Virus record (IMG/VR): IMGVR_UViG_3300042452_000337
Location: 1-62,623 of that record
Source of the DNA: a virus
Taxonomy: Duplodnaviria; Caudoviricetes
Length of the DNA stretch: 62,623 nucleotides
Direction: 5' to 3' (one strand)
Under the pieces are notes generated by a model. That model saw nothing but the letters and a program-made list of their open reading frames with translations. It ran no database searches and was not told where the DNA came from. Both the position numbers and the translations under genes were made by a program. Shown piece after piece: positions 1 to 14,411 of the stretch. Position 1 is the stretch's first letter; each line of letters starts with the position of its first letter.

Positions 1-99
1 CGTGACGCGGCTGGGGGGGCTCGGGGGTAGGGGGTATCGCGTGCGTTCCATCTATATGCGGCACAACGGGTTCCGTTTCACGCTGTCGACCCCGAGCGT
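1..99. repeat. Terminal direct repeat, copy 1 (circular assembly overlap)
   Basis: Identical to 62525-62623. Confidence 0.95.
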
Positions 100-215
100 G
101 AATCGGCCTGCGGAAACCCCACGAATCCCAGTCCATTCCTCGCTGCGGAGTCTGTCTTTTGTCGGAACGGTGATCGGCGTTCGACCGTCGCTGTGACCGG
201 CTGGAGGGACGAACG

Positions 216-455
216 ATGAACGGCAACATGATCTGCGTCTGGAACGGCTACACGATCTCTTGCAACGTCAACGTCGGCGAGATCGCCGTCTACCACCGGG
301 ACGACATGGAATGGTGCCCGGTGTATCGCGGTCATGGCTACGTTTTGCGTGCCACCTACGCCCGCATCTGCGACATGGCTCGCGAAGGTTCGCAGATCGA
401 CCTGTATCGCTACGGCTGGAACGGTCGCGAGGTCGTGGCGGAGTTCTGGGGCTGA
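216..455 (+). CDS. Hypothetical early protein
   Basis: GGAGGG RBS upstream; bounded by repeat copies. Confidence 0.7.
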   Translation: MNGNMICVWNGYTISCNVNVGEIAVYHRDDMEWCPVYRGHGYVLRATYARICDMAREGSQIDLYRYGWNGREVVAEFWG

Positions 456-536
456 AACGCCCGCTGCGGAGTCTGTTTCTTGTCGGCACCACGTTGGTGC
501 TGGCTGTCCCGTGTTCTCTCACTGAGGGAGTGTTCC

Positions 537-653
537 ATGCGTGAGTTCAACTACTGGTACTGCTACATGCGGCTGTCGGGCTACGACCACTGGGCGGGCC
601 TGTTCCTCGCCATCGAATTGCGTCGCGCTGAGCGCAAGGGCTATCTCGTCTGA
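537..653 (+). CDS. Small hypothetical protein (38 aa, MREFNYWYCY...)
   Basis: GAGGGAG RBS; stop codon directly before repeat at 658; below ORF-track cutoff. Confidence 0.6.
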   Translation: MREFNYWYCYMRLSGYDHWAGLFLAIELRRAERKGYLV

Positions 654-760
654 TTCCCCGCTGCGGAGTCTGGATGTCGGTGGGGCTGAGTGTGACAGCC
701 CCATCCTCACCCGCACTTCGCGGGAATGGTTCGATTGTTTCTTTCTCTGAGGAGGTTCCT

Positions 761-1201
761 ATGTCCACTGCTGACTTCAAGGCCGCTGTTCAACTCGCTG
801 TCGAAACCGCTCTCGGGCTGGTCAAGACCGACAAAGCCCCGCCGGTGCCTGCCGCTGATCCCACCCCAGCCCCCGTGCAGAAGCGCAAGGGCAACCCCGA
901 AGCCCTCAAGCGGTGGCGTGAGGAGCAGAAGGCCGCAAAGGCCGCTGGTACGGCTGCGCCTGCCAAGAAGGCGAAGCCCAAGCCGGAGCCTGTCGCTGCC
1001 ATCAAGGCCGACGCCCCCGCGTGGGTCGTGAAGCCTCACACCACGCAGAAGGGCGTGAAGGGCAAGATCATCAACGTCGGCCCGTTCAATGCGTGGCTGG
1101 CCGATGGCGATGAGGAGAAGCGGGTCGCCATCATCGCCGCCATCAACGGCGTGTTCCGCCACGCCCAGTGCAACGACCTCGTGAAGGCCATCTGCGGCTA
1201 A
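761..1201 (+). CDS. Lys/Ala/Pro-rich hypothetical protein, possibly nucleic-acid binding
   Basis: GAGGAGG RBS before ATG 761; basic low-complexity linker. Confidence 0.75.
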   Translation: MSTADFKAAVQLAVETALGLVKTDKAPPVPAADPTPAPVQKRKGNPEALKRWREEQKAAKAAGTAAPAKKAKPKPEPVAAIKADAPAWVVKPHTTQKGVKGKIINVGPFNAWLADGDEEKRVAIIAAINGVFRHAQCNDLVKAICG

Positions 1202-1278
1202 CCGCTGCGGAGTCTGGGATACGGGGCAGGACTGACACTGCCCCCAATTTTGTTCACACCCAACAGGAGAACGTCGCT

Positions 1279-1527
1279 ATGGCTGGTTTGCCGACATACG
1301 CCCCCGAAGAAGCACCGCAGTGGGTTCACGATGTAGTCGAGAACCTGCAACGTGAGCACGACAATCGCGTTGAGGAATACATCGCTCTTGAGAAGATGCT
1401 GCCCGCTGGCAAGGAGCGTGCGGCCATCCATGTCGCCATCAACGCCCTGCGTGAGAGCGGGCACGGCTACATTGCCGACATTCTCGACGGCTACATCAAG
1501 CGACTCGCCGCCAGCCCGCTCGGCTAA
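1279..1527 (+). CDS. Hypothetical protein
   Basis: AGGAGA RBS; TAA abuts repeat at 1528. Confidence 0.7.
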   Translation: MAGLPTYAPEEAPQWVHDVVENLQREHDNRVEEYIALEKMLPAGKERAAIHVAINALRESGHGYIADILDGYIKRLAASPLG

Positions 1528-1595
1528 CCGCTGCGGAGTCTGACCAGTGAGGGCCGACGACGGCTCGGGCAGGTTCGTAGCCTGCCCCCTCACCT

Positions 1596-1631
1596 ACGCC
1601 CATCGCAACTTCGCGGTGGGCGTTTTTGTTT
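1596..1631 (+). terminator. Intrinsic-terminator-like hairpin plus T tract
   Basis: ACGCCCATCGC-AACTTC-GCGGTGGGCGT-TTTTGTTT. Confidence 0.6.
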
Positions 1632-1654
1632 CCCTTGTGTCAAGGAGTTTTCCC

Positions 1655-1858
1655 ATGATCGTGACGAAGTTTCGCGGCAACGACGGGCGTATGTACCTGC
1701 TCACCAACACGGCATCCATGCCCGTGCCGGTGTTCAACGAGGAGAACGCAGACCACGTGGCGTCTGCGCTCATCGTGCAGGAGATCGCGGACGAGATCGC
1801 CCGCCTGGACAGTGAGCCCCAGCCCGCTGCCCGTGCCCTCCCTGTGTTCGTGAGGTAA
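1655..1858 (+). CDS. Hypothetical protein
   Basis: AAGGAG RBS before ATG 1655. Confidence 0.7.
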   Translation: MIVTKFRGNDGRMYLLTNTASMPVPVFNEENADHVASALIVQEIADEIARLDSEPQPAARALPVFVR

Positions 1859-1860
1859 GC

Positions 1861-2091
1861 ATGAGCAACACGCTCACGAAGCCCACTGTGTTCGCGGTCT
1901 GCCTGACACGGCAGGAGTTGCACGCGGCACGTGCCGTCCTGCGCTTCATGCACGGCCACTCACACGAGGCGGAGTTCTGCCCGTCCCTGTCCATGCACGA
2001 GGCGGACGAAGCCCGTCATGCACTCGGGCGGGCACTGACGAAAGTCCACAACGCCCTGCTCGATGCAGGCGGAGCGGACGACACGAAGTAG
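1861..2091 (+). CDS. Hypothetical protein
   Basis: GAGG RBS; follows previous stop by 2 nt. Confidence 0.65.
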   Translation: MSNTLTKPTVFAVCLTRQELHAARAVLRFMHGHSHEAEFCPSLSMHEADEARHALGRALTKVHNALLDAGGADDTK

Positions 2092-2178
2092 CGGCGGCTT
2101 CCCCGCTGCGGAGTCTTGATTCTGACCGGCGGCACGTTGCCGCTGGCTGTCCCTTGTCCCTAGTTCTGAGGAGTTCCC

Positions 2179-2343
2179 ATGCGCAAGAAGAACCATCTGC
2201 CCCACACCCTGCACTTCATCCGCCTCGACAACGCGGCGAAGCAGTTGGGGGCACAGTCGAAGCGTCAATTCGTGGCCGATCTTCGCACGCTGTCAGACGC
2301 ACAGCGCCGCGAGATGGCTGACCTCGTGAAGAAGGAGGGCTGA
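2179..2343 (+). CDS. Small hypothetical protein (54 aa, MRKKNHLP...)
   Basis: GAGGAG RBS; open frame to TGA 2341-2343. Confidence 0.6.
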   Translation: MRKKNHLPHTLHFIRLDNAAKQLGAQSKRQFVADLRTLSDAQRREMADLVKKEG

Positions 2344-2346
2344 TAC

Positions 2347-2577
2347 ATGGAGTGGGTCAAGTGCAACGACAGGCTCCCGGTTCCTGAGCCGGGAATGAAC
2401 GACGCGCTGGTTCTTGCGTTCGCAGAGGGACGCACGTACGCCATGCACTACTACCCGCCGTTCGATGGCTTGCCGGGCGCGTGGGCGTGCGCGCAGGGCG
2501 ATGGCTGGGGTGTTCCAAGTCATCGCGTCACGCACTGGATGCCCATGCCTGCACCTCCCGCTGCGGAGTCTGCGTGA
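2347..2577 (+). CDS. DUF551-like phage protein
   Basis: MEWVKCNDRLP...VTHWMPMPAPP signature. Confidence 0.75.
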   Translation: MEWVKCNDRLPVPEPGMNDALVLAFAEGRTYAMHYYPPFDGLPGAWACAQGDGWGVPSHRVTHWMPMPAPPAAESA

Positions 2578-2702
2578 TGGGCAACAAGTGGAACGACCAG
2601 TGGTGGTCACTGGTCAAGGCCGAACGCATCAAGGAGGAGCAACGTCTGCGGGTGGTTCGCAAGAGCAAGCGAGCCACCCGACGCAAGCAGAAGCAGCGGT
2701 GA
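2577..2702 (+). CDS. Small basic protein
   Basis: TGATG coupling to previous gene; Arg/Lys-rich C-terminus. Confidence 0.5.
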   Translation: MGNKWNDQWWSLVKAERIKEEQRLRVVRKSKRATRRKQKQR

Positions 2703-2731
2703 AGTAGCCGCTGCGGAGTCTGGTTTTCGGC

Positions 2732-2766
2732 AAGGCCATCCCACTTCGGGGTGGCCTTTTCTTTTT
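2732..2766 (+). terminator. Intrinsic-terminator-like hairpin plus T tract
   Basis: AAGGCCATCCC-ACTTC-GGGGTGGCCTT-TTCTTTTT. Confidence 0.65.
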
Positions 2767-2784
2767 CACTGAGGAGATGGGCAC

Positions 2785-4116
2785 ATGCCTACCAATGAGG
2801 ACACTGGCACTCTTGCGGATCGCCTTCTGTCGGAGGTGCCGCAGCACGACGCGAACGGGTTTGCTATCGCTCACCCCTACTTGCATCGTGAAACCAACAC
2901 GCTGTACGGGCCCGATGGATTCAACATCGACGGCTTCAATCTGTCCGGGTTTGACAGGGAAGGGTACGACGAGCGCGGGTTCAACGAAAACAACCTGCAT
3001 CGTGAGACAGGCACGCACTACCACCCCGTCGATCACCTGACATGGGATCGCGGACGATACAGCGAGGACAACAACGACCTCGACTGGCGTGGCCGTGACC
3101 GCTGCGACAACGGCGAGTGCGAGGACATGGAATGTGAGTCCTGCAACCCGCCGGATGACGACGAGGAGCCCGTCGATGCGTCTTTCAACGACCGACTCGA
3201 CTCATACGGCGAGAAAGCACCCCGCAAGTTGGGCTGGTCTGACCACAGCCATCGCACGTTCGACGGCGAGTACGTGGCAGACCGCACGCTCTATGCGGGC
3301 CACGAGATCGAGATGTATGCGGACGACGAGGACTACAGCAGCGTCGAGCACGTTCTCGACCAACTCAACTCCGCGTACCGCAACTTCAAGCCGCAGACGC
3401 GGACGCTACGTTGCGCCATCGCCAAGTACGACGGCTCGCTTGAATACAAAGACGGCGGCTTCGAGGCGGTGACTGTTCCGCTCACACGCGAGCAGACCTA
3501 CGGAATCTTCGGGTCGTTTCGCGTACTGGGTGGCGGCTCCTGCTCGGCGTGGGACTGCGGCCCTGAGGTCGGCCATCACATCCACCTGTCACGTGCAGCG
3601 ATAGGCCCGCTGACGCTTGGCAAGTTGCTTGTGTTCGCCAACGTCGAGTGCAACCAGTTGTTCATCGAGCGGGTGGCCGGGCGCAAGGCGGACTACAACA
3701 CGTTCGCTTCCAAGAAACTGACCGATGCCATGCACGACAGACCCAATGCGGACAGGCACGAGGTCATCAACGTGACGAATCACACCGTCGAGTTCCGCAT
3801 GTTCAAATCCAACCTGCTCAGTCGTGGCATCCTCAAGAACTACGAGTTCGCCGTGTCGCTTGTGCGGTACTGCGAGCAAGTGGACTACGGCAACGGCGAG
3901 GAGCCGGAAGATAGCGACCACCCGCTGCACTACCTGTCGTACCGGCGGTGGCTTGCGGCCAAGCACGCAGAGTACCCGTACCTGCACCAGTTCTTCCTGT
4001 CTCACGGGAGCATGGCCCGCAACTACCGCCAGCACGCGGGCCTCGCCAAGAACGCTGTCCCAACCGAACGCAGCCCGAAGTTCGCCCTCATCCGGACGTC
4101 GGCTATCGGTGCCTGA
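2785..4116 (+). CDS. Putative amidoligase (COOH-NH2 ligase, glutamine-synthetase-like fold) with N-terminal GF/YD repeats
   Basis: GHEIE, DGSL..GFEAVTVP, GHHIHLS and TVEFRMF motifs; adjacent glutamine amidotransferase. Confidence 0.75.
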   Translation: MPTNEDTGTLADRLLSEVPQHDANGFAIAHPYLHRETNTLYGPDGFNIDGFNLSGFDREGYDERGFNENNLHRETGTHYHPVDHLTWDRGRYSEDNNDLDWRGRDRCDNGECEDMECESCNPPDDDEEPVDASFNDRLDSYGEKAPRKLGWSDHSHRTFDGEYVADRTLYAGHEIEMYADDEDYSSVEHVLDQLNSAYRNFKPQTRTLRCAIAKYDGSLEYKDGGFEAVTVPLTREQTYGIFGSFRVLGGGSCSAWDCGPEVGHHIHLSRAAIGPLTLGKLLVFANVECNQLFIERVAGRKADYNTFASKKLTDAMHDRPNADRHEVINVTNHTVEFRMFKSNLLSRGILKNYEFAVSLVRYCEQVDYGNGEEPEDSDHPLHYLSYRRWLAAKHAEYPYLHQFFLSHGSMARNYRQHAGLAKNAVPTERSPKFALIRTSAIGA

Positions 4117-4159
4117 CTTTTCATTCCCATTCATCATTCACACACAGGAGACACACGCT

Positions 4160-4990
4160 ATGTGCCTTGCAATCTACAAGCCCGCCACCACCGCCGCCGA
4201 CTGGGACGCCTACGCGGCGGGCCACAACTCCAACGCCCACTCATGGGGTTTCGCCGCCGTCGTTGACGGCCAACTCGTCACGCGATGCGGCATCGGTACG
4301 TTCGCAGAGTTCAAGCAGGCGTTCGAGCCTTACGCTGACAAGCAGGCCATCATCCACTTCCGATGGGCCACGCACGGCAGCAAGACGGAGGCCAACTGCC
4401 ACCCGTTCCTTGTGAGCGACGACCTCGCCGTCATTCACAACGGCATCATCCACATCGAGTGCAGCGTCCACTCCGACCGCTCGGACACGTGGCACTTCAA
4501 CGAGTTGGTGCTGCGGCCCATGCACTCACGCGATCCGGACTTCTACTCCCGGCCCGATGTGATCTACACGATGGAGCAGGCACACGGGGGCAACAAGTTC
4601 GTGTTCCTGCGTGCGGACGGGGACTGCGGAATCTGGAACGCCGACGCTGGCAAGTGGGAGTCCGACGGCCACTGGTATTCCAACAGTGACTACAAGGGAT
4701 ACAGCATCGGCTATCGCTGGGCCCGCCAGTCCACGCCCGCCGTCACGGCGGAGCCCCGCTGGTGGGAGGCCGACGAGGGAAAGTTCCAGTACGACGAGGA
4801 CACGCTCGGCGGCACCGCCTCCGCAACCATCGACATCGAGGCCGACGACGACGAGATGGATGACGCGATGGAGTACACCGACCTTCGGCTGTACGACCTT
4901 CGCATGTACGGGTTCAGTCGCAAGACCCTGACCGAAGTGTTCGAGTTGACGGGTCACTTGGGGATCGAGGCACTGCACGACGCTATCTAG
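4160..4990 (+). CDS. Class II (Ntn) glutamine amidotransferase
   Basis: N-terminal M-C nucleophile; HFRWATHG, HPF, HNGII, SDT motifs; CAGGAG RBS. Confidence 0.85.
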   Translation: MCLAIYKPATTAADWDAYAAGHNSNAHSWGFAAVVDGQLVTRCGIGTFAEFKQAFEPYADKQAIIHFRWATHGSKTEANCHPFLVSDDLAVIHNGIIHIECSVHSDRSDTWHFNELVLRPMHSRDPDFYSRPDVIYTMEQAHGGNKFVFLRADGDCGIWNADAGKWESDGHWYSNSDYKGYSIGYRWARQSTPAVTAEPRWWEADEGKFQYDEDTLGGTASATIDIEADDDEMDDAMEYTDLRLYDLRMYGFSRKTLTEVFELTGHLGIEALHDAI

Positions 4991-4999
4991 GAGGGAAGC

Positions 5000-5224
5000 A
5001 TGAACGCTTTCTGGTTTCACTACAACAAGCCGCTGTCTCAGCAGCGGGGGCAACCGACGATGACGTTGCATCACAAGGGTGCGTGCGTGTTCGTGCGCCG
5101 CATCGTGTGCAACGTCCCAACCCACAGCCGTGAGCGAACCCGCCAGCCACGCATGGTCATTGCCGGTGTCGGCAACGTGCGTATCTCGGGCGACACGGCG
5201 TACATCACAGGAGATAAGGCATGA
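5000..5224 (+). CDS. Hypothetical protein
   Basis: GGAGGG RBS; tight operon packing. Confidence 0.7.
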   Translation: MNAFWFHYNKPLSQQRGQPTMTLHHKGACVFVRRIVCNVPTHSRERTRQPRMVIAGVGNVRISGDTAYITGDKA

Positions 5225-5556
5225 GTACCACGATCAGTCACGTTGATGCGGTGCGGCAGGCAGTCCGCAACTTCAAGCAGGTGCAGCAAGAGCATCGTGA
5301 GTTCGGGGCGTGCGACACGGAGCCGGACGGACAGTTCCAAGTGCGCATGCACCGTGCAGCACACGGGCTGAGGCCCACCTCCCCGCAGGGGTGCGCCGGA
5401 TGGGAACTATTCAGCGGCATGAAGGGCGTCCGCTCTGCCGCAAGCAGGCTCACCGCTGCCTGTGATGCGGTCATCAAGGCCATCGAATCCTGCCCGACCG
5501 GCGAGCGGGACGAACTGATGGCGTACGTCCGCGACTACTGCTGGCGAGTGTACTGA
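5221..5556 (+). CDS. Hypothetical protein
   Basis: ATGA overlap; AGGAGA RBS. Confidence 0.7.
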   Translation: MSTTISHVDAVRQAVRNFKQVQQEHREFGACDTEPDGQFQVRMHRAAHGLRPTSPQGCAGWELFSGMKGVRSAASRLTAACDAVIKAIESCPTGERDELMAYVRDYCWRVY

Positions 5557-5584
5557 CCACCGCTGCGGAGTCTGGTTGATAGCG

Positions 5585-5619
5585 GCCGGTGGCATGGTGC
5601 CATCGGCTTTCTCTTTTTC
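5585..5619 (+). terminator. Intrinsic-terminator-like hairpin plus T tract
   Basis: GCCGGTGGCA-TGG-TGCCATCGGC-TTTCTCTTTTT. Confidence 0.6.
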
Positions 5620-5630
5620 TGGAGGTTCAC

Positions 5631-6341
5631 ATGAAGATTCCTCAGTTCATCAAGCAACTCGTGAAGGTGTGCGACCACGAGTCCAGTCGCTACGCACTGG
5701 GTGGTATCAAGTGCGAGAGCGATGGCACCACCGCCAAACTCACGGCTACGGACGGTCGCATCCTCGCCTCCGTCCACTACCCGGACGATGACAAGCCGGT
5801 GGATGTGATCGTGGAGACACGGGAACTAGCCCGTGCCCCGTCCGTACTGTGGAAGAAGGGGCCACCGCCTCGCTTCGACGGCAAGGCTTTGTGCGTGGGC
5901 AAAGACAGCACGCCCATCGACACAGTGGACGGCAGGTTCCCCAAGTACGAGTCCATCTTCACCATCCACGACCAGCCCGATGGGTACGTGGCGGTGAACT
6001 TGGACGCTGCCCTGCTTGCCAAGTTGTGCGCCCTGTCGCACGCCATGAACGACGACCAGCACAAGGGCAAGGGCATCACGCTGTTCGTGAAGGACGCTAC
6101 CTCCTGCGTGTTCGCAACCACCAAGAGCGAGGACGGCAAGCACGTTGCCCGCCTCGCCATCATGCCACTGGCTGCGGACGAGGAGGGATACAAGCACGTT
6201 TTCCCGGCTCGTCCCGGTGCGGAGTCTGAGGATCGGGAGCCAGCCCCGCCGCCGGAAGTTCTTGACGACGACGCCATCGCTGAGGCGGTGACTCGCGAGC
6301 CGGAGCCCATCGGGGAATACGGCACGCTCGCCCCCGTCTGA
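5631..6341 (+). CDS. DNA polymerase III beta-clamp-like protein (partial)
   Basis: SRYALGGI, ATDGRILA and GRFPKYESI resemble DnaN central/C-terminal motifs; GGAGG RBS. Confidence 0.65.
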   Translation: MKIPQFIKQLVKVCDHESSRYALGGIKCESDGTTAKLTATDGRILASVHYPDDDKPVDVIVETRELARAPSVLWKKGPPPRFDGKALCVGKDSTPIDTVDGRFPKYESIFTIHDQPDGYVAVNLDAALLAKLCALSHAMNDDQHKGKGITLFVKDATSCVFATTKSEDGKHVARLAIMPLAADEEGYKHVFPARPGAESEDREPAPPPEVLDDDAIAEAVTREPEPIGEYGTLAPV

Positions 6342-6366
6342 CTGTCACTACAAGGAGGGCAACTCA

Positions 6367-6462
6367 ATGTCACACGGATGGACACACACGGAGATCGAAC
6401 TGTTCCTGCTCATGGCACTGGTGCTGATGAAGGCACTGGTGGTGTGGGCCAAACTCGACTGA
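6367..6462 (+). CDS. Small membrane peptide (31 aa)
   Basis: AAGGAGG RBS; hydrophobic stretch LFLLMALVLMKALVVW. Confidence 0.5.
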   Translation: MSHGWTHTEIELFLLMALVLMKALVVWAKLD

Positions 6463-6474
6463 AAGGAAACGAAC

Positions 6475-6759
6475 ATGGCTCGTGTTCTTGACGACATCGT
6501 GCATTACTTCAAGCAGCGTGGAGTGGACATACTCGCCACGAAAAAGAACCTCTACACGCTCTGCCTCGACCACTGCGACAGCGTGTATGAGTCGCTGCAA
6601 GCACGCTCGTACCCCAAGCCCGACCTCATCCGCTCGGTGATCGAGGCGGAGCAGCACGTGCTGATGCTTGAGGAGGAACTGCGGGAGGCGTGGGCTGACA
6701 AGCGTCGCCTCATGCAGCAACTCGCCGCCGCCCTCAAGAAGGAGGAGTCCAATGCATGA
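6475..6759 (+). CDS. Hypothetical coiled-coil protein
   Basis: AAGGA RBS; helical charged C-terminus. Confidence 0.7.
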   Translation: MARVLDDIVHYFKQRGVDILATKKNLYTLCLDHCDSVYESLQARSYPKPDLIRSVIEAEQHVLMLEEELREAWADKRRLMQQLAAALKKEESNA

Positions 6760-7120
6760 CCTCACCCCACGTGAGCGAGAGATTCTCACGCTCATCGCCC
6801 GCTCGATAGAAGCCAACGGCTACCAGCCCACGTACCGGGACATCGCCCGGCACTTGGGGTGGGCAAGTCTCGGCTACCTCCACCACCTCTCCCGCTCACT
6901 CACCCGCAAGGGCGTGGTGACCGTGAACGGGGCGAGGGCGTGGTCGTTTGATTGGAAGTCCTACCTCACACAGGAGAAAAAGCATGACGCTCGCAGAACT
7001 GATGGAACTGTTGCGGCCCGTAGCACCCGACGCAATGTACGACGAGGACGGGGAGGGGCAGGTGATCGTGTTCACGGGACTCCTCCTCGAACCCGACGCC
7101 GACTGGCAGCGGCCCGCTGA
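6752..7120 (+). CDS. LexA-type winged-helix DNA-binding protein without peptidase domain
   Basis: LTPREREIL...GYQPTYRDIARHLG...L.RKG matches the LexA N-domain pattern. Confidence 0.75.
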   Translation: MHDLTPREREILTLIARSIEANGYQPTYRDIARHLGWASLGYLHHLSRSLTRKGVVTVNGARAWSFDWKSYLTQEKKHDARRTDGTVAARSTRRNVRRGRGGAGDRVHGTPPRTRRRLAAAR

Positions 7121-7148
7121 TTGTGACCTTACCCACTACTCAATGTAG
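6984..7148 (+). CDS. Hypothetical protein overlapping the LexA-like C-terminus
   Basis: CAGGAG RBS before ATG 6984. Confidence 0.5.
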   Translation: MTLAELMELLRPVAPDAMYDEDGEGQVIVFTGLLLEPDADWQRPADCDLTHYSM

Positions 7149-7156
7149 GTGTACCT

Positions 7157-7348
7157 ATGTATACTCTCGACCATCGTCCGATCCCCACTGCGTCCCTCAC
7201 CCTCAGCCCACGCGAACTCGAACTCATCGAAATCTCCCTGCGAGATTCCGCTGCGGAGTCTGAGGAGTGTGGCGAAGGGCAGGCGGTGGAGTTCACCGTT
7301 CTGCTACGCAAGTTCGTGAAGGCGCACGCCTCACTCATCACCCACTAA
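7157..7348 (+). CDS. Hypothetical protein
   Basis: ORF in operon; contains repeat copy 7248. Confidence 0.6.
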   Translation: MYTLDHRPIPTASLTLSPRELELIEISLRDSAAESEECGEGQAVEFTVLLRKFVKAHASLITH

Positions 7349-7358
7349 GGAGGTTCCC

Positions 7359-8225
7359 ATGACCGACGCTATCTCAATCGGTGCCCGCTCTGGCGGTGTC
7401 TGCATCCTCAATGCGGCGACCGCTCGGCGTGACACCGTGTTCGCTGCGGCCGATGCGGTTGGCTGCGGCAGGTACGTGCCTGCCCAGCCAGCCACTACCA
7501 CCACCCTCTCGATTGCCATGAAGGCGGTGGGCCGCACGCTGTATGGCAAGAAGCGCAAGCAGCCGATCAGTACCCGTCACATCGACGGCGACTCGTTCGA
7601 GTGCGTGCGTGTCGTGCCGTCGAGCGACCGCAACGACTACGTTCACCTGTTCTCTGCCCGGATCGACCGGGACTGGAACGTGAAGGTACTGGCACACAAC
7701 CACGACCAGCAATCGTGGACGCTGGATGCCGCACTCAGCAGTGCGGTCGTGACCATGCGTGACTTCCTGCCGTCGCCCATCGTGTCGCAGGTGGCGGTCA
7801 AGATGCTCACCTCATGGAAGGGTGTGCTGCTCAAAGACGACGGCGGTGTGTGGTTCCTTGCCGACGAGCATCTCGACAAGTACCGCACGTTCGCCGCTGG
7901 CCTGCGACAGAACGGCAGTAGCCCGAACTTCACACTCACCACCTTCCCCATCGACGCCAACCCTGACACGGTGGCACACGTGATCCAGAAGGTGCGTGAC
8001 ACGGTGAACGAGGGCGTCCAGCAGATCATGCAGGATGTGCTGGAGGCAGGCGGCGGGATGAACGACCGCTCGATCAACGTCCGCCTGTCCCGTGCCAACA
8101 AACTGCTCGCCCTCGTGGAGCAGTACCAGTCCCTCACCGGCATCGCTATGCCGGAACTGACCGATGCAATCGAGCAGTGCAAGCAGGCGGTTGCGGTCAA
8201 CCGTCTCCTCGCTGCTTCTGTCTGA
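7359..8225 (+). CDS. Hypothetical protein (288 aa) upstream of the AAA/VWA pair
   Basis: AAGGAGG RBS; long ORF. Confidence 0.8.
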   Translation: MTDAISIGARSGGVCILNAATARRDTVFAAADAVGCGRYVPAQPATTTTLSIAMKAVGRTLYGKKRKQPISTRHIDGDSFECVRVVPSSDRNDYVHLFSARIDRDWNVKVLAHNHDQQSWTLDAALSSAVVTMRDFLPSPIVSQVAVKMLTSWKGVLLKDDGGVWFLADEHLDKYRTFAAGLRQNGSSPNFTLTTFPIDANPDTVAHVIQKVRDTVNEGVQQIMQDVLEAGGGMNDRSINVRLSRANKLLALVEQYQSLTGIAMPELTDAIEQCKQAVAVNRLLAASV

Positions 8226-8253
8226 TCCCAACCCCACTGAAAGGAACTCAGTC

Positions 8254-8661
8254 ATGGCTATCAAGTACGACGTTGAGCAGTTCGTCAAGGAGTACACGGA
8301 GGCGGCTGCGGCTGGCCTGTCCACCAAAGAGTTGGCTGCGTTGATCGGCATTACGCAGTCCTCCCTGTGGTCGCGAGTTGATCGGTGCCGTCGCTTCGGC
8401 ATCGACCTTCCCGTGCTGCGTGGCGGACACAAACTCCCGCCCGCCACACGGGCTGCGAAGAAGGCGAAGTATCGCCGCACTCGCACCCGCAAACTGCGGA
8501 AGGCTGGGGCTGTGTCCGCCACGCCCAAGCCGCAGCCCGCAGCCAGCCTGCCCCACCCCGACATCGAGGCGTTGTCGGAGCGGGTGGCGGACAAGGTGTA
8601 CGACCGGCTGCGTGAGACGCTCCGGTTCCAGTTCTTCGTCGGCCCCGAAATCCCGGCCTAA
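8254..8661 (+). CDS. Putative HTH DNA-binding protein with basic tail
   Basis: STKELAALIGITQSSLWSRV HTH-like segment; AAGGA RBS. Confidence 0.6.
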   Translation: MAIKYDVEQFVKEYTEAAAAGLSTKELAALIGITQSSLWSRVDRCRRFGIDLPVLRGGHKLPPATRAAKKAKYRRTRTRKLRKAGAVSATPKPQPAASLPHPDIEALSERVADKVYDRLRETLRFQFFVGPEIPA

Positions 8662-8745
8662 TCGCCGGTGCGGAGTCTAGTTTCTGGGGAGGGGTGGTAA
8701 CGTACTGCCCCTCCCCTTTCCCTTCACTTGAGGAGTTGATCCATC

Positions 8746-9849
8746 ATGGCCCGTACCAATCTCGGCAATACCCCTGCGTTCCTTGCCTGTCAGGTGGTGC
8801 CCGTCCTTGTGCGTGGCGGCACCGGCGTCGGCAAGTCATCAACGTGGGAGGCCCTTGCCGCTGCACTCAAGCGGACATTCATCCCGCTGCTCGGTGCAAC
8901 CCACCTGCCCGAAGACTTCTCCGGCTACCCGACGCCAGACCACAAGGCACAGGTCACTCGCATGATGGCCTCGTCGTGGGTCGCCAAGACTCGTGACGGC
9001 AAGGCACTCGTGCATGTGGACGAGGTGACGAACGTCCCTCCTGCCACACAGGGTGGCCTGCTCTCCGTGATCTCGGAGCGGCGAGTCGGTGACGAGGTGA
9101 TGCCCGAGTCCACCATCGTGGTGGGTTCATGCAACCCGCCGGAACTGTGCCCAAATGCAGTGCCTCTGTCGCCTGCCATGCGGGCACGGTTCTTCCACCA
9201 CGACTGGGTTGTGGACTACGACCACTGGTTCGCTGGCCTGCGTGCTGGCTGCGAGTGGACGGCACCGGAGTTTCCCATTGTCCCGGATCACTGGCGTGAC
9301 TTCCTCCCTCAGTTCGGCTCGCTCGTGGAGGCGTTCCTCCGTGCGGCCCCCGACTGCCGGGAGAAGTTGCCGACCGATGACGAGACGATGAGTTTCCCCA
9401 ACTGCCGCACGTGGACGTACCTCGTCAAGTGCTTCGCCGCTGCGGAGGCGTGCGGGTACGAGCGTGAGCACGCCATCTACAAGGCACTCGCACTAGGCAA
9501 CGTGGGCGAGGGCGTCGGCGGTGAGTTCCTCCGCTACTGGCGGAACCTTGACCTCGCCAACCCGGAGGCGTTCCTCTCGGGCGAGGAGAAGTACGAGTAC
9601 GTGAAGCGGCCGGATGCCAACATCTGCCTGCTCACTGGTCTGGTCAAGGGGCTGCGTGATAACACCAGCGAGGAGCGTTGGGTCAACGCAGCGAAGGTGT
9701 TCATCACCATCGGGGAACAGGAGATCGAGTCGTTCCTCATGCAGTTCAAGTCCTTGTGGCGTCCGGTCAAGGACGGTGGCGTGCGGCCCGATGGCTGGAC
9801 TCCCCCGAAGGATGTGCTTGCGAAGATGATGGCTCTGGTTCAGTCGTGA
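8746..9849 (+). CDS. MoxR-like AAA+ ATPase
   Basis: Walker A GGTGVGKS, Walker B VHVDE, sensor CNP, MRARF. Confidence 0.85.
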   Translation: MARTNLGNTPAFLACQVVPVLVRGGTGVGKSSTWEALAAALKRTFIPLLGATHLPEDFSGYPTPDHKAQVTRMMASSWVAKTRDGKALVHVDEVTNVPPATQGGLLSVISERRVGDEVMPESTIVVGSCNPPELCPNAVPLSPAMRARFFHHDWVVDYDHWFAGLRAGCEWTAPEFPIVPDHWRDFLPQFGSLVEAFLRAAPDCREKLPTDDETMSFPNCRTWTYLVKCFAAAEACGYEREHAIYKALALGNVGEGVGGEFLRYWRNLDLANPEAFLSGEEKYEYVKRPDANICLLTGLVKGLRDNTSEERWVNAAKVFITIGEQEIESFLMQFKSLWRPVKDGGVRPDGWTPPKDVLAKMMALVQS

Positions 9850-9871
9850 TTCACACACACAGGAGATACCA

Positions 9872-10090
9872 ATGGGACGCATACTTCAATGGGAAACAGT
9901 CGTGATGAGCCGCGAGAGTGCGGAACATATTTGGAAATCGTTCGAGCCGACAGACCCACTGATCGCTTTCTATATCCGCAAAGACCTCGACACGCAGGAC
10001 GGCCACTTCGTGAACGTCGAACTTCCGTTGAGCGATGTGGCGAAGGTGAAAGAAGTTGTTCGTAAGTTGGCAGAAGGGAGGGCTGAGTGA
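9872..10090 (+). CDS. Hypothetical protein
   Basis: CAGGAG RBS. Confidence 0.7.
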   Translation: MGRILQWETVVMSRESAEHIWKSFEPTDPLIAFYIRKDLDTQDGHFVNVELPLSDVAKVKEVVRKLAEGRAE

Positions 10091-10314
10091 TGTGCGTGTG
10101 GTATGAGGTCGATCAAGGCGAAGAGCGATGCCTCCCCGACAAGGAGAGGCGTGTGCTTGTCGCACAGGATGATGGCTACATAGAGATGGCGTACTGGAAC
10201 GGTCAAGACTTTGAGTTTGACTGGCCGACACTGGCCGTCGCACCAGCACCTCGCGTGCGGTACTGGTGCGACCTGCCAGAGACACCTACGGAGGACGGCG
10301 AAGCGCCGTACTGA
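10090..10314 (+). CDS. Hypothetical protein (DUF551-like)
   Basis: LP...VLV...VRYWCDLP pattern. Confidence 0.6.
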   Translation: MCVWYEVDQGEERCLPDKERRVLVAQDDGYIEMAYWNGQDFEFDWPTLAVAPAPRVRYWCDLPETPTEDGEAPY

Positions 10315-10315
10315 C

Positions 10316-11719
10316 ATGACACCACGACAACTACTGGGCCAAGCACGGGTGCATACCTTCGAGTACGTGCCCTACCTTGCGTCCTACATCTACAGCCTGC
10401 GTGAGCAGGAGACACCGGGCATCGGCACGGCTGCGGTGGACGAGGCGGGCAACCTCTACTGGTGCCCGAAGTTCGTGTCGGAGATCGGCCGTGACCAGAC
10501 GGCGTACCTCGTGGCACACGAGGCACTGCATCTGGGGTACGACCACCACTCACGGGCGAGGGAGATCATCGGTGAACACGCCGACGAGTTCCATCGCTTC
10601 GTGTGCAACGTGGCGGGCGACCTCGTGATCGAGCAGACCCTTCACATGATGCGGCACCTGCGACCGGAGGGGTGCGTGCATCTAGGCTGCAAGATCGAGG
10701 CGTGGGGTATCACGCTGGACTTCCCCGAGAACAAGTCCATGCAGGAGTACTACCGGCTGATCCTTGAGAAACTCAAGGGCCAGCAATCACCCAAGCAGGA
10801 GCAAAGCAATGACGGCCAGCACGGCAATGACAATCAGAATCCCGGAGATGCGAACGCTGACAGCGATGGAGAAACTGAGGGCAGTCAGGGCGATGGCTCG
10901 CAGGTTCCGCCTCCAAGCGGAGCGGGACAGCCTCCGTCTGGGCAGGGCCAAGTACCACCACCGCCCGGTGCGCCGGGTACGGGTGGCTCGTGCGGCGACG
11001 GTCAGGCCCGTCCGTACGAGATAGAGAACGACGGCTCGTGGGAAACATGGGGCAGCGACATGGCCGCAGCCAAAGCGGAGGAGGCCATCGCTGAGTACGA
11101 GCAGCAGCACGGCAAGGGTTCGGTTCCCGGCAGCATCAAGCAGGCACTCGACTGCAAGTTGCGTCCGCAGCCAGACCCCTTTGACAAACTGCGGTCGGCT
11201 GTGTGTACGAGCGTGGCATCGCCGGTCGGCGGGCGGGACTTCTCGCACCGCCGCCGGTCACGCAAGCAGCCGCCGGGTGACGACGACCCGCTGCTGCATG
11301 GCCGCATCACAGTGCAGCCTCACGCCGTCGTGATCGTGGATACCTCCGGCTCGATGATGGACAAGGACACGCAAGCCCGTGCCCTGTCAGTAATCAGTCA
11401 GGGCATCCGCAAACTGTCCCGCGTCAAGGTGTTCTGTGCCGACACGCACGTGCGCTCACACGCTCTGGTCGCTACGACGAAGGCGTTCGAGTGGCACGGC
11501 GGTGGCGGCACCAGCATGGCACGTGCCATCGCGGAGGTGGATCGCACGGACAAGCCGGACTCCATCATCCTCGTCACCGATGCCATCACCGCCTGGCCCG
11601 CCAAGAAGCCACGTGCCCGCGTGGTCGTCGCGTACACGGGCGTGGTCGGCAGTACCTATCACAAGCGCATCCCATCGTGGTGCCGCACTGTTCCACTGGA
11701 AGGAGGAGCCAATGCCTGA
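10316..11719 (+). CDS. Metallopeptidase-like plus VWA domain protein (DUF2201-like), MoxR partner
   Basis: HEALH (HExxH), MIDAS DTSGSM, GGGGT, ILVTD. Confidence 0.85.
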   Translation: MTPRQLLGQARVHTFEYVPYLASYIYSLREQETPGIGTAAVDEAGNLYWCPKFVSEIGRDQTAYLVAHEALHLGYDHHSRAREIIGEHADEFHRFVCNVAGDLVIEQTLHMMRHLRPEGCVHLGCKIEAWGITLDFPENKSMQEYYRLILEKLKGQQSPKQEQSNDGQHGNDNQNPGDANADSDGETEGSQGDGSQVPPPSGAGQPPSGQGQVPPPPGAPGTGGSCGDGQARPYEIENDGSWETWGSDMAAAKAEEAIAEYEQQHGKGSVPGSIKQALDCKLRPQPDPFDKLRSAVCTSVASPVGGRDFSHRRRSRKQPPGDDDPLLHGRITVQPHAVVIVDTSGSMMDKDTQARALSVISQGIRKLSRVKVFCADTHVRSHALVATTKAFEWHGGGGTSMARAIAEVDRTDKPDSIILVTDAITAWPAKKPRARVVVAYTGVVGSTYHKRIPSWCRTVPLEGGANA

Positions 11720-12602
11720 GGTCAAGCGGCGGGTTCGTACTTACGAGCAACTGGATCGGATGCTGTGCAAGCGGCCGACACGAGGGAACTTCCTTGTGTC
11801 CACCAATGTGTACGGCAAGGTCAATGCGTCTGCGGACTTCACGAACTCCAGCCCGGAGATCGTGCTGAAGTACGTGGCACAGGGAGGCCACTACTTCTTC
11901 GAGGTCGCCCGTGTGTGGCGTGTGTCGGGCGGCGACACCGTGTACAGGGTGTCTGGGTGCAGGGCGGAGATACGCAAGGAGGCGGTCGGCCGGAAGCGTT
12001 ATCGCAAGTACGTCCAGCGGCTCACCCCTCGTGACATCACTGGCCGCACGCCACGTGAACACGACGTTCGGTGGTATCGGATACGGGATGGGGTGGCGAC
12101 GCAGATCGAGGGCCCGCCGAAAGGCAGGCCGTTCTGCTGGACGTCCTTGCCTCAGTGCATCACGCCCTCGCTCAAGGAGTGGCTTGCCTCGCACGGCACC
12201 CTGCCCAAGTTCGTAGCCCGCAGCAGGGCGTTCGCCATCAACCTGCGGAGGGGACTGGCGGACGGACTGCCGTGCCAAGTGCAGTTGCTTACGCACCGGC
12301 AGGCTCCGGCAGGCGGGCTCAGCAGCAAGACGAGTTCCCTGTGGCTACACGTTTGCACGCCACCGACGGGCACGAGCAACGGGCGGCGGCTTGTGATCGA
12401 GACGTTCACGCACTCCCGAGAGTCCCGCACCCACTTCCACGTGGACGGCGACTACGGGATGCGGCACTCGCAGTTCGCTGCCCTTGAGCCAAAGGGGCCG
12501 CACGGCTGGCGAGTGGTTGACCGATGGCCGTGTGCCCGCGACGCCATCGCTGGCATCAAAGAGTGGGTTCTTTCGACGGTCTACATTCCCGGCCCCATGT
12601 GA
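11712..12602 (+). CDS. Hypothetical protein
   Basis: GGAGGAG RBS before ATG 11712. Confidence 0.7.
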   Translation: MPEVKRRVRTYEQLDRMLCKRPTRGNFLVSTNVYGKVNASADFTNSSPEIVLKYVAQGGHYFFEVARVWRVSGGDTVYRVSGCRAEIRKEAVGRKRYRKYVQRLTPRDITGRTPREHDVRWYRIRDGVATQIEGPPKGRPFCWTSLPQCITPSLKEWLASHGTLPKFVARSRAFAINLRRGLADGLPCQVQLLTHRQAPAGGLSSKTSSLWLHVCTPPTGTSNGRRLVIETFTHSRESRTHFHVDGDYGMRHSQFAALEPKGPHGWRVVDRWPCARDAIAGIKEWVLSTVYIPGPM

Positions 12603-12613
12603 GGAGCACCATC

Positions 12614-12769
12614 ATGTTCACTTGGATCATTCGTATTGCACTGTTTTGTTTCATGGCGTGGACGATGAGCATTCCCGGAACGGAGTGCTATATCTCACCA
12701 GGCATCTGGTCGTGCATCATCCTCGCCTACTGGTTCTGCAATCACCCCATGCACACGAAGTGGAGGTAA
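12614..12769 (+). CDS. Small membrane protein
   Basis: GAGGAG RBS; two hydrophobic segments. Confidence 0.55.
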   Translation: MFTWIIRIALFCFMAWTMSIPGTECYISPGIWSCIILAYWFCNHPMHTKWR

Positions 12770-12771
12770 TC

Positions 12772-13512
12772 ATGCCAGTCGTTTATTGCTACGGTCGGGC
12801 CAGCACGAGCAGCCAGACCCTCACCGAAGACAATCAGCGTTCCGTGTGCGAGGAGTACGTGACTCGCTCGCTCGTGCCGGAGGGATACACCTATGGCGGG
12901 TGGCTGTACGACTCTGCCACCAGCGGCAGCAGGCCCATGTTCGAGCGGGAGGAGGGCCGCAAGTTGTGGGCCCTTGTCCAGCCGGGAGACAAGATCGTGT
13001 GGGCGAAGTTGGATCGGGCGTTCCGCTCCGTCCTCGACGCCGCCCAGACCATGATGCTCCTGTCGCAGAAGGGCGTGTCGTTCAACTCGCTGGACTTGGG
13101 CCTCGACACCAGCACGCCCATCGGCCGCTGTGTGTTCACCATCCTGACGGCGTTTGCCGAACTCGAACTAGAGTTTATCCGGCAACGCACGAGGGAGGGG
13201 CTGCGGGCCAAGCGGAAGTCCGGCAAGCCGCACGGCAGGCACGCCCCGATTGGCTGGCAGAAGATCGGCAAGAAGAAGGACTCGTACTACCTGCCCTGCC
13301 AGGAGGAGCGGGCTCAGGTCGCCACCATGCAGGCCATGCGGCGGGACGGGGCATCCCTCGAACGCATCACCCTCCACATGCACGGGGTTCGTCGGCCCAA
13401 TGGCAAGAGGTGGAACATCAACTCCATCACCCGTGCCCTCAGGGCGGCGGAGGCTCGCTTTCCAAAAGCCTTTGGAGAATCTCCAAAGCGGAGGCGAGCC
13501 GTCGCCGGATAG
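12772..13512 (+). CDS. Serine recombinase (resolvase/invertase family)
   Basis: YGRAST catalytic Ser motif, KLDRAFRS, AELELEFIRQRTREG. Confidence 0.9.
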   Translation: MPVVYCYGRASTSSQTLTEDNQRSVCEEYVTRSLVPEGYTYGGWLYDSATSGSRPMFEREEGRKLWALVQPGDKIVWAKLDRAFRSVLDAAQTMMLLSQKGVSFNSLDLGLDTSTPIGRCVFTILTAFAELELEFIRQRTREGLRAKRKSGKPHGRHAPIGWQKIGKKKDSYYLPCQEERAQVATMQAMRRDGASLERITLHMHGVRRPNGKRWNINSITRALRAAEARFPKAFGESPKRRRAVAG

Positions 13513-13957
13513 TGCGTGGGTCGCAGCCTGCTTGCTCGCCAATCTCCCGGAGAGACAGGCCCCGATAGAACCGGGCTTGGATCAACTTGCGGGACTTGGC
13601 GGGCAGGCGGGCGATGCACACGTGGAGCCTGCCTGTCAGCCCCTTCTGGGATGTGACCAGCACCTCCGCCAACTCCATCGGCACCCTGTCCGGTGAGTCG
13701 TAGCGGGCCCGGCGGTTCCGGTCGATCTCCTTGAGGATCGCATTGCGGATGGCGGTCGAGAAGTACGTCGTGACCTTCGACTGGGCAGGGTCGTACGTCA
13801 GGGCGGCACGGCAGATGGCAAGGTATGCCACGCTCGTGGAATCAATCGCCGCCACCTGCCTGCGAAGCGTGGGGTAGCGGCAGCGGAAGGCGGCCATCGC
13901 CTTCGGCACCACCGGCAGTGCGGATTCTACGAGCCTCTGCTGTTCGGGCGTGAGCAT
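13439..13957 (-). CDS. Sigma-70 family RNA polymerase sigma factor (regions 2 and 4)
   Basis: YDP...TTYFSTAIRNAILKEI; RFYRGLSLREIGEQAG...TIRRR HTH. Confidence 0.8.
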   Translation of the reverse strand: MLTPEQQRLVESALPVVPKAMAAFRCRYPTLRRQVAAIDSTSVAYLAICRAALTYDPAQSKVTTYFSTAIRNAILKEIDRNRRARYDSPDRVPMELAEVLVTSQKGLTGRLHVCIARLPAKSRKLIQARFYRGLSLREIGEQAGCDPRTIRRRLASALEILQRLLESEPPPP

Positions 13958-14041
13958 CCATGCGGCCAATCAACGGGACGTACCGTTTCATGGGAGCATG
14001 GACAGGAGGCTCTCGATAGTCTCTCCCTTCGCTCAAGAGCG

Positions 14042-14326
14042 TCACTGATCCATTCTTGGGCTTGGCTTTCTGAACGACTTCATGCTTTCGTTCGTAGCCT
14101 TTTCCGCTGCGGACTCGGTTTCGGCAAGAAACGATTCGGCTTCGCGGATTTCATACCAGCGGCATTCATGCCATTCCATGTCGGCAGACTTTGCGTCTAC
14201 GCCTGCCCGCTTGGGCGGCGGCTTGGGTATTCCGTTCTCCATGACATCTTTGAAATATCCCGTCATCCCTGCGAGCAGGGATCGCATACGAACTAGATCG
14301 TCGGCATCGTAGGTATCGGCAGCCAT
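14042..14326 (-). CDS. Hypothetical protein, moron-like
   Basis: AGGAGG RBS; AT-richer than neighbours; possible own promoter. Confidence 0.65.
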   Translation of the reverse strand: MAADTYDADDLVRMRSLLAGMTGYFKDVMENGIPKPPPKRAGVDAKSADMEWHECRWYEIREAESFLAETESAAEKATNESMKSFRKPSPRMDQ

Positions 14327-14411
14327 AGTGGTGTCCTCCTACCTACCTATACGCCGCAGGGGTCTAGTTTGGTAACCCCCGATTTTTCGTCCCTCTCTGC
14401 GGCGTGTAGTG

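Follow-up and report, generated by a model that had tools for sequence, protein, structure and literature searches.

The stretch of DNA analysed here, hereafter the window, is the complete IMG/VR virus record IMGVR_UViG_3300042452_000337 (Duplodnaviria; Caudoviricetes; 62,623 bases, 62.6% G+C), from an uncultured freshwater phage, and our subject is a polarised 15-bp element, CCGCTGCGGAGTCTG, which is repeated through its first 8.7 kb. An exact terminal repeat of 99 bp is found at the window ends, which means that position 1 falls within a divergent control region of ~255 nt. Two gene blocks diverge from this region: the genes of the + strand run from ~216 to 13,512 (hereafter the arm), and all remaining genes, from 62,484 down to 13,439, are on the − strand, in a 49-kb block that includes the structural genes. 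Most of the arm genes have no family assignment.

Copies of the 15-mer in the plus-strand arm

No other word of the genome recurs nearly as often as the 15-mer (the second most repeated one sits in coding sequence), and none of 100 dinucleotide-preserving shuffles contained any match to it. Eight copies are exact and four near-exact (140, 2103 and 6214 with one mismatch each, 8665 with two); all 12 are on the + strand between 140 and 8679, and every copy points in the same direction as the arm genes. At up to one mismatch, 11 forward and 0 reverse matches were obtained, while the reversed-pattern control gave 0 in both orientations. A 25-nt position weight matrix (PWM), trained on 126 sites of relatives with the window left out, returned precisely the same 12 sites when both strands were scanned, at 17.5–35.8 bits. 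The runners-up, at 14104 (11.4 bits) and 9437 (9.8 bits), are both on the + strand and compare with a maximum of 11.3 bits in 10 shuffles; no site on the − strand reached 8 bits, and the extra + strand matches with two mismatches, at 14104 and 25802, are at chance level. Pattern and PWM scans thus confirm the initial annotation of this DNA, which had reported eight exact and four near-exact copies on the + strand of the first 8.7 kb. They also agree with its remark that no full copy exists in the other 54 kb, where nothing above shuffle level was found on either strand; the copies occupy a single strand. The copies are as follows, with gene starts refined by ribosome-binding site (RBS) before the distances were taken.

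140..154, + strand: copy 1, TCGCTGCGGAGTCTG, in the divergent control region, 61 nt from the arm's first gene (start 216), 34.2 bits
461..475, + strand: copy 2, exact, 5 nt past a stop codon, 61 nt from start 537
658..672, + strand: copy 3, exact, 4 nt past a stop codon, 88 nt from start 761
1202..1216, + strand: copy 4, exact, abutting a stop codon, 62 nt from start 1279; left end of a 326-nt unit absent in the X4 variant (see below)
1528..1542, + strand: copy 5, exact, abutting a stop codon, with a 112-nt leader containing two hairpins before start 1655
2103..2117, + strand: copy 6, with a final T instead of G, 11 nt past a stop codon, 61 nt from start 2179
2558..2572, + strand: copy 7, exact, in the last codons of the open reading frame (ORF) 2347-2577
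2708..2722, + strand: copy 8, exact, 5 nt past a stop codon, 62 nt from an amidoligase-like gene (start 2785)
5560..5574, + strand: copy 9, exact, 3 nt past a stop codon, 56 nt from start 5631
6214..6228, + strand: copy 10, a CCGGTG variant within gene 5631-6341, 17.5 bits
7248..7262, + strand: copy 11, exact, within a conserved 63-aa gene (7157-7348), where it reads D-S-A-A-E-S, 96 nt from start 7359
8665..8679, + strand: copy 12, CCGGTG...TCTA, the last copy, 3 nt past a stop codon, 66 nt from a MoxR-type ATPase gene (start 8746)

Eight copies (461, 658, 1202, 1528, 2103, 2708, 5560 and 8665) therefore lie 0–11 nt past a stop codon, one (140) is ahead of the first gene, and three (2558, 6214 and 7248) are within ORFs, as had been annotated. 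The CCG-GTG-CGG variants had been described as both internal and changed at the centre only, which is true of 6214; the copy at 8665 is intergenic and differs in its last base too. Among the internal copies, 2558 provides its own GGAG 8 nt ahead of the ATG of a conserved 41-aa ORF (2577-2702), and 6214 has counterparts at the same place in three relatives (L131, L135 and L137). Upstream of copy 1, the divergent control region (62485-62623 / 1-139) keeps several further blocks among relatives, including a 15-bp palindrome (ACGTA-N5-TACGT), a G run GGGGGGGCTC, GCGTTCCATCTA and TTCCGTTTCACGCT, which may be operator, packaging or origin signals.

Conservation, leader anatomy and gene cassettes

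In order to assess conservation, the full records of ten relatives were scanned for the motif at up to two mismatches. All ten related viral contigs retain it, with 5–14 co-oriented matches against 0 for the reversed-pattern control and at most one match on the opposite strand. The matches form a single cluster, of ~6–9 kb in the fuller records, bar one two-mismatch match each in G001 and G008; G001 and G005 have one further copy each, 2–4 kb past the others. The exact 15-mer is also multi-copy in several other IMG/VR contigs. A logo of 100 distinct copies, whose flanks are unbiased by the search, has T4, G5, G7, G8 and G10 at 100% and C1, T11 and C12 at 99%, followed by looser positions 13–14 and a weak gnTTnTG tail, with T at −3 in 69% of copies; there is no conserved block at −35 distance, the positions from −25 to −5 peaking at 0.46 bit. 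Since the median identity of homologous DNA between arms is 75.5%, the core is far more constrained than the genes around it. In bacterial genomes the 15-mer occurs as single copies in unrelated phyla among the matches listed (80 of at least 120), which does not suggest a known host promoter or a repetitive extragenic palindromic (REP) element. The family-wide conservation strongly supports the original view of a phage-specific cis system. The sole literature match to a 13-mer of the motif, as far as the available text goes, was an unrelated mammalian study, and, if the reading given below is correct, an exact search with this 13-mer would offer a practical marker that retrieves members of the lineage and delimits accessory-gene cassettes in metagenomes. 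Among cultured phages, no megablast match was found for the arm and no tblastn match for the portal protein in a phage collection; a portal protein search of species-representative genomes returned neither a relative nor a prophage relative, and WhiB was not found in a search for host clues.

The copies head units of constant order: motif, T-rich stretch of 5–10 nt, GC-rich hairpin, pyrimidine-rich stretch, GGAG-type RBS and start codon. From motif end to start codon, the nine copies outside ORFs measure 61, 61, 88, 62, 112, 61, 62, 56 and 66 nt. Copy 1 has no + strand gene upstream, and the last five arm genes (8746-13512) have no copy behind them, so the motif is a 5′ element of the units and not a 3′ element. 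To quantify the hairpins, 158 distinct leaders were gathered from 44 locus-strands, each with three or more co-oriented copies. In 124 of them a hairpin of at most −10 kcal/mol was found within 65 nt, versus 115 of 400 positions picked at random from this DNA, and the first base of the stem is at motif positions 20–22 in 63 of the 124 (mode 21, with 36), usually 6–8 nt past the 15-mer, while the control is flat. A U-tract follows the hairpin in 26 of 124 cases, and leaders of a short class (22–39 nt) have no strong hairpin. Across 12 aligned leaders of the types ahead of the 2785 and 5631 operons, a 10-bp stem is kept with changes on both sides at five pairs, and all 12 carry a CTTTTCTTTTTC tract, indicating that some of the hairpins are probably true intrinsic terminators. 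The general partner of the motif, as judged from these folds, is nevertheless a stable hairpin at a fixed distance.

Within the window, the scanner placed five terminator-like sites behind motif copies. The stem begins at the predicted +1 (motif start + 21; see below) for 5 of the 12 copies, and 3–6 nt later for three more. The leader hairpins are listed here.

167..194, + strand: leader hairpin of the first unit, 11 pairs, −11.1 kcal/mol, without U-tract, abutting the RBS
482..504, + strand: leader hairpin, 10 pairs, −14.7 kcal/mol, starting at the predicted +1
679..705, + strand: leader hairpin, 10 pairs, −17.6 kcal/mol, starting at the predicted +1, with a second small hairpin at 710-724
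1223..1244, + strand: leader hairpin, 7 pairs, −14.5 kcal/mol, starting at the predicted +1, tail moderately T-rich
1596..1623, + strand: second hairpin of the long leader, terminator-like, 11 pairs, −21.0 kcal/mol, tail TTTTGTTTC
2124..2147, + strand: leader hairpin, 10 pairs, −15.1 kcal/mol, starting at the predicted +1
2733..2757, + strand: leader hairpin with canonical U-tract, 10 pairs, −19.0 kcal/mol, tail TTTCTTTTT, compensatory changes across relatives
5584..5608, + strand: leader hairpin with canonical U-tract, 11 pairs, −18.6 kcal/mol
8686..8716, + strand: leader hairpin, 14 pairs, −26.2 kcal/mol, starting at the predicted +1, tail T/C-rich

Long leaders (87–113 nt; 710-724 in the window, and relatives L128, L130, L131 and L135) have extra small hairpins, for example CCGC-ACTT-GCGG and CTGC-ACTC-GCAG, whose stems echo the CCGC/GCGG palindrome of the motif itself around a loop of 4–5 nt. 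In the leader at 2103-2192 and its orthologues (F-type leaders; alignment A1, ten sequences), RNAalifold pairs the motif CGCUGCGGAGUCU with the spacer/start-codon region …GAGUUCCCAUGCG, with 0 compensatory changes; this pairing could be translational masking or chance. An extended hairpin, in which an upstream GATT would pair with AGTC of the motif, was rejected, as the A9>C copies show no covariation.

The genes between the copies differ over the ten arms. When the arms were cut at the motif copies and the pieces clustered, a conserved backbone was obtained together with variable single-gene pieces between copies, one of which (piece Q) is located behind the amidoligase operon in one genome and ahead of it in another. 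We then asked where homology between arms begins and ends, using 275 blastn blocks of at least 100 nt, the near-duplicate arm L133 having been dropped. As many as 71 of the 275 blocks start −8 to +3 nt from the motif start in both genomes (~3 expected), whereas 5 end in or just past a motif (~8 expected). Blocks thus begin at the motif and seldom end there, which implies that motif, leader and gene travel together, with the motif heading the unit. The same is visible at closer range in X4, a set of contigs from a related population in another freshwater run, 90–95% identical to the arm. In X4 the unit from copy 1202 to copy 1528 is missing, the gap being exactly 1195-1520, and 22 letters fit either side of the joint; X4 also lacks the first unit (joint at 460/461), and its replacement of 1659-2098 ends 4 nt ahead of copy 2103. 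Two further losses, of 5220-5629 and 6466-7144, have no joint at a motif copy, and the latter removes gene 6475-6759 together with a LexA-like gene (6752-7120). Because the same element lies ahead of many unrelated small genes, it doubles as a homology patch for the gain, loss and movement of cassettes, and the shuffling resembles homologous exchange at a regulatory sequence that has been conserved. The initially proposed recombination site that shuffles single-gene cassettes accordingly stands as a description of evolutionary behaviour (cassette map, breakpoints and X4), but a dedicated site-specific system is not indicated.

A candidate promoter-leader cassette and competing explanations

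With about even confidence, we read the motif as the head of a phage-specific promoter-leader cassette that would start each transcription unit of the arm. In such a cassette, the functional core CCGCTGCGGAGTC, together with a T-rich stretch of 5–6 nt and a pyrimidine-purine step behind it, would form a one-block promoter head recognised by host core RNA polymerase carrying a phage sigma factor of the extracytoplasmic function (ECF) type. The invariant G10-T11-C12 would serve as the ECF −10 core, and transcription would start ~7 nt past the 15-mer, at motif position 21. Since the hairpin usually begins at that point, the mRNA would be born with a protective 5′-terminal stem-loop, and in a minority of units the hairpin and its U-tract would also act as a terminator or attenuator that insulates neighbouring units. 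The assignment of the sigma factor as reader, taken by itself, is tentative and could well be wrong. Among the functions that the initial annotation had offered, an early promoter is the best supported, for the promoter part only. The candidate reader is encoded at the far end of the arm.

13439..13969, − strand: ECF-type sigma factor gene, candidate motif reader, facing the end of the + arm in convergent orientation; matches TIGR02937 at 72.2 bits (cut-off 42.9)

This sigma factor has regions 2 and 4 and was found in all five genomes of relatives searched, and each of the five sigma-bearing loci that reach at least 8.6 kb past the gene has 3–6 motif copies. By these searches it is the sole universal, recognisable, sequence-specific DNA reader found, and CCGCTGCGGAGTC is retained in relatives whose sigma is 66–79% identical, while positions 13–14 drift by lineage. 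The scanner reported 0 sigma70-like sites in 1-14500, and the logo describes a single contiguous GC-rich block without a −35/−10 pair. For E. coli sigmaE, the available text of PMC6648896 places GTC at −10, with T-10 and C-9 flipped out. Setting the invariant GTC of the motif in this register predicts +1 at position 21. Across the 158 leaders, position 20 is a pyrimidine in 143 and position 21 a purine in 147; the step is also seen where the stem starts at least 3 nt further on (pyrimidine 40/43, purine 42/43), in leaders without a strong hairpin (27/34 and 28/34) and in 12 of 12 window copies. Compared with a canonical ECF promoter (GGAACTT...GTC in E. coli sigmaE, in the portion of PMC6648896 at hand), the motif shares the invariant GTC, the pyrimidine-purine step at the predicted start and an encoded ECF sigma, but it has no conserved −35 and instead carries ten invariant bases directly upstream of GTC, at about −21 to −12.

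Several observations weigh against this reading. Among 18 runs listed, no RNA run was found to contain this DNA. The pyrimidine-purine step coincides with the junction between T-rich spacer and G-rich stem and is therefore only partly independent evidence, and the ECF-type −35 element, normally needed 16–17 bp upstream, is not conserved although the sigma keeps region 4. The motif is absent from the 49-kb − strand structural block, the usual target of phage sigmas such as those of phiEco32 and 7-11; the only other repeated word that could serve as a second motif for the sigma is coding, and the non-coding gaps of the − strand block are too few for a two-part promoter to be defined. In phiEco32 and 7-11, according to the accessible part of PMC4331800, a phage sigma reads a single contiguous motif of 9–12 bp, present in 6–10 copies, in genomes with two divergent gene clusters. 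The window resembles these phages in its sigma70-family factor, its contiguous, well-conserved, low-copy motif and its two divergent clusters. However, their motifs, as given there, are AT-rich, −10-like (tAATGTAtA; tgTGATGTtata) and ahead of middle and late structural genes, whereas the one described here is GC-rich, 13–15 bp long, present in 12 copies and not in the structural block, and its sigma is of ECF type. A further difficulty is that the 26 of 124 hairpins that have the form of canonical terminators, including those ahead of the conserved operons 2785, 5631 and 8746, should also stop transcripts begun at their own motif; these units might need antitermination or be deliberately attenuated. 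Copy 2558 must itself be transcribed, since its GGAG is the RBS of ORF 2577. Finally, two host-type promoters were called by eye, TTGCGC-N16-TAGAAT-N7-ATG before the sigma operon and a TAnnnT hexamer on the SSB side; the scanner flags neither, and the leaderless arrangement of the former is not conserved. A host rich in leaderless mRNAs was discarded on the same grounds, as the idea was based on that single by-eye promoter.

The alternatives that we weighed differ in whether the motif acts on DNA or RNA and in what reads it. The foremost, which we consider unlikely, is a stoperator-like site, in which a phage protein binds the asymmetric 13–15-mer as a monomer, represses initiation and blocks elongation in an orientation-dependent manner, silencing or timing the arm. 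Size, asymmetry, multiple copies, short intergenic positions past stop codons and an orientation that follows transcription all fit the asymmetric 13-mers of cluster A mycobacteriophages (described in the available parts of PMC9283540), and the arm encodes both a protein with a LexA DNA-binding domain (PHROG 'transcriptional repressor') and a winged helix-turn-helix protein. The mycobacteriophage sites, in that same source, number more than 20 genome-wide in temperate phages with a dedicated two-domain repressor (PMC9283540). In the window, by comparison, all 12 sites fall within 8.7 kb of a single arm and both strands of the remaining 54 kb are free of them, the relatives cluster likewise, and no such repressor was identified; the motif is thus stoperator-like in form but, by the distribution of its sites, fails as one. 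Moreover, the LexA-like gene is missing from G007, which has nine motif copies, and from the X4 variant, so that, on gene content, the LexA-like protein is dispensable and the operator for it considered in the initial annotation is weakened; the winged helix-turn-helix protein (8254) was detected in only five of eight relatives' arms. Lysogeny is unsupported, the integrase (tyrosine recombinase) family scoring below cut-off in the window and no prophage relative having been found, and a stoperator would leave the fixed-distance hairpin and the conserved pyrimidine-purine step unexplained and the arm without a recognisable promoter. We assign a somewhat lower probability to a signal in the transcript or non-template strand, where the arm would be one long operon and the copies would either load a factor for local antitermination (nut/ops-like) or direct endonucleolytic processing into hairpin-headed monocistronic mRNAs. 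The order of stop codon, motif, hairpin (26/124 with U-tract) and RBS recalls nut-then-terminator layouts, the motif keeps strictly to one strand, transcription of copy 2558 is certain, and the motif contains a mini-hairpin, CCG-CTG-CGG, in which 11 of 15 stem-position variants (C0>T, C6>T) retain G-U pairing. The T-rich spacer that precedes the hairpin would be a suitable target for an RNase specific to single strands. Such a 3-bp stem is, however, too weak to fold alone, no covariation of motif and flank was seen, and no recognisable promoter upstream of copy 1 could feed the operon. Only 21% of the hairpins are of terminator type, and the motif lies clear of the terminator stem, unlike antiterminator structures, which overlap it. 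Lambda nut and HK022 put contain a conserved RNA hairpin (boxB, put stem-loops), which is missing here, where hairpin sequences and loops vary freely without a conserved protein-binding box and without an Rfam match; this variation, with the low share of U-tracts, weakens the nut/put-like antitermination site that had been among the first suggestions.

The anatomical evidence for a promoter applies equally to one with another reader, which we hold to be less probable again; candidates are an alternative sigma of the host, host polymerase that a small phage protein redirects, and an RNA polymerase of the phage or its virion that went unrecognised. In its favour, a truly early arm must be read before any phage protein exists, and one-block elements of 13–22 bp are typical of single-subunit polymerases. 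Several large ORFans have no assignment, among them one of 1154 aa, for which a virion 'polyvalent protein' domain is a weak lead. Nevertheless, the R...K...YG polymerase motif (motif B) occurs in none of 12 large proteins, the 785-aa protein next to the sigma gene has a lectin fold, and sequence searches of PDB with the 1154-aa and 1231-aa proteins returned no match. The polymerase family PF00940 had no match either, which is weak evidence as the control genomes were silent too, and the 15-mer is multi-copy in no bacterial genome among the matches listed (80 of at least 120). Very improbable, in our view, is a dedicated recombination site at which a phage recombinase, e.g., the serine recombinase at 12772-13512, would cut out and insert cassettes of one gene each, much as in an integron. 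Cassettes are indeed gained and lost exactly at motif copies, cassette Q has different relative positions in two genomes, and the window does encode this small serine recombinase. Sites of serine or tyrosine recombinases are paired inverted half-sites, whereas the motif is asymmetric, 13–15 bp long and without them, and the resolvase has no tblastn match in the arms of eight relatives, which says little as these arms are truncated near that gene. The one-sided breakpoints (71 vs 5 of 275) suit a conserved promoter-leader unit rather than symmetric exchange, and recombination does not call for an exactly conserved spacing to hairpin and start codon. Integron attC differs as well, in that no inverse motif copy was seen by eye 3′ of the hairpins and the tyrosine recombinase family is below cut-off.

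Three further candidates were tried and rejected. GANTC (CcrM/GcrA-type) methylation would find a GAGTC in the motif, but it is lost in the A9>C variants, which make up 5 of 11 copies in L132/L133; the GG-N10-GC spacing of a sigma54 site does not fit the logo by eye; and g18 as motif reader was set aside as its N-terminus resembles, again by eye, a dinucleotide-binding enzyme.

For the promoter-leader cassette, a close parallel is the promoter-early stem-loop (PeSL) of T4-type phages. As described in the available text of PMC2839356 and PMC4122927, PeSLs are alike in that a conserved transcription signal and a stem-loop are repeated ahead of many small ORFans in a plastic region, in that the element marks the limits of what is inserted, deleted or replaced from one relative to another, and in that the stem-loop may sit just ahead of the transcription start; their authors themselves draw the integron analogy. 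By the same text, however, a PeSL has a near-consensus sigma70 −35/−10 pair with an AT-rich upstream region, an effectively terminating stem-loop and five positional classes (PMC2839356, PMC4122927), in contrast to the single GC-rich block of 13–15 bp, the U-tracts in only 26 of 124 hairpins and the nearly fixed hairpin distance seen here. Circular by-products of the cassettes (mini-circles) are a further mark of PeSLs. In its sequence features, therefore, the motif cassette is PeSL-like in architecture and evolution but is not a PeSL, as it lacks the defining sigma70 promoter. If our reading is correct, the PeSL idea, i.e., regulatory cassettes doubling as recombination hot spots for accessory-gene mosaicism, would extend from T4-type myoviruses to an unrelated high-GC lineage, which suggests a general evolutionary principle. 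A fuller version, which we think rather doubtful, is that in a lineage of abundant uncultured freshwater phages of 62–65 kb an ECF sigma gave up the two-part promoter and reads a one-block 13–15 bp element, CCGCTGCGGA plus GTC, such that transcripts are born with a 5′ hairpin and the module acts like an integron cassette head. Any small gene behind the module would then be expressed, and identical modules would allow exchange, deletion and relocation between co-infecting phages. If our main reading holds, the cassette would be a compact, portable promoter-leader module of ~75 nt from a phage group without a cultured member, and a rare case of an ECF-family sigma that reads a promoter without −35, with bearing on the bypass of sigma region 4 and on orthogonal expression parts.

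Other features of the window

Several other genes and regions were observed in the course of the analysis. On the − strand, 20703-21062 matches a MazZ-like dATP/dGTP diphosphohydrolase (PF18909, 7e-19), and the adjoining 21059-21589 a DatZ-like HD 5′-deoxynucleotidase (YfbR-like, 1.4e-5, slightly below cut-off), a pair typical of 2-aminoadenine (Z-genome) phages. The PurZ/adenylosuccinate synthetase family has no match in the genome, and the phage may manipulate its deoxynucleotide pool by a different route. At 23395-23723 (−), within the replication module, a 329-nt gap without an ORF supported by third-position G+C content (GC3) is seemingly rich in inverted repeats; it has no Rfam match at the gathering threshold and could be a non-coding RNA or an origin. 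The 1154-aa ORFan (28523-31987, −) ends in a C-terminal tail rich in lysine and arginine and matches nothing in Pfam, PHROG or PDB by sequence. Its sole lead is an ESM Atlas neighbour cluster (score 0.95, with 167 features in common) that carries LPD38, a 'polyvalent protein' domain; an injected virion protein is one possibility. The 785-aa protein by the sigma operon (15180-17537, −) adopts, in its Atlas model, a concanavalin A-like lectin/LamG-type fold (template-modelling (TM) score 0.60 by query, 0.86 by hit) and probably serves in receptor binding or as a tail fibre; its gene is at a distance from the remaining structural genes.

In the arm, the universal 288-aa protein at 7359-8225 (+) has an IGxGxGG(I/V) dinucleotide-binding-like signature at its N-terminus (by eye, 16 orthologues) and no family match save a sub-threshold Pfam match to the TFA2 winged-helix domain. 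The amidoligase-like gene at 2785-4116 (+; weak PHROG match) is followed by a class II glutamine amidotransferase-like gene at 4160-4990 (+); the pair is present in all eight relatives' arms, and modification of bases or small molecules is a possible role. Behind the last motif copy, a MoxR-type AAA+ ATPase (AAA_5; 8746-9849, +) and a DUF2201 metallopeptidase/VWA protein (10211-11719, +) form a classic MoxR-VWA pair, which is the conserved distal part of the arm.

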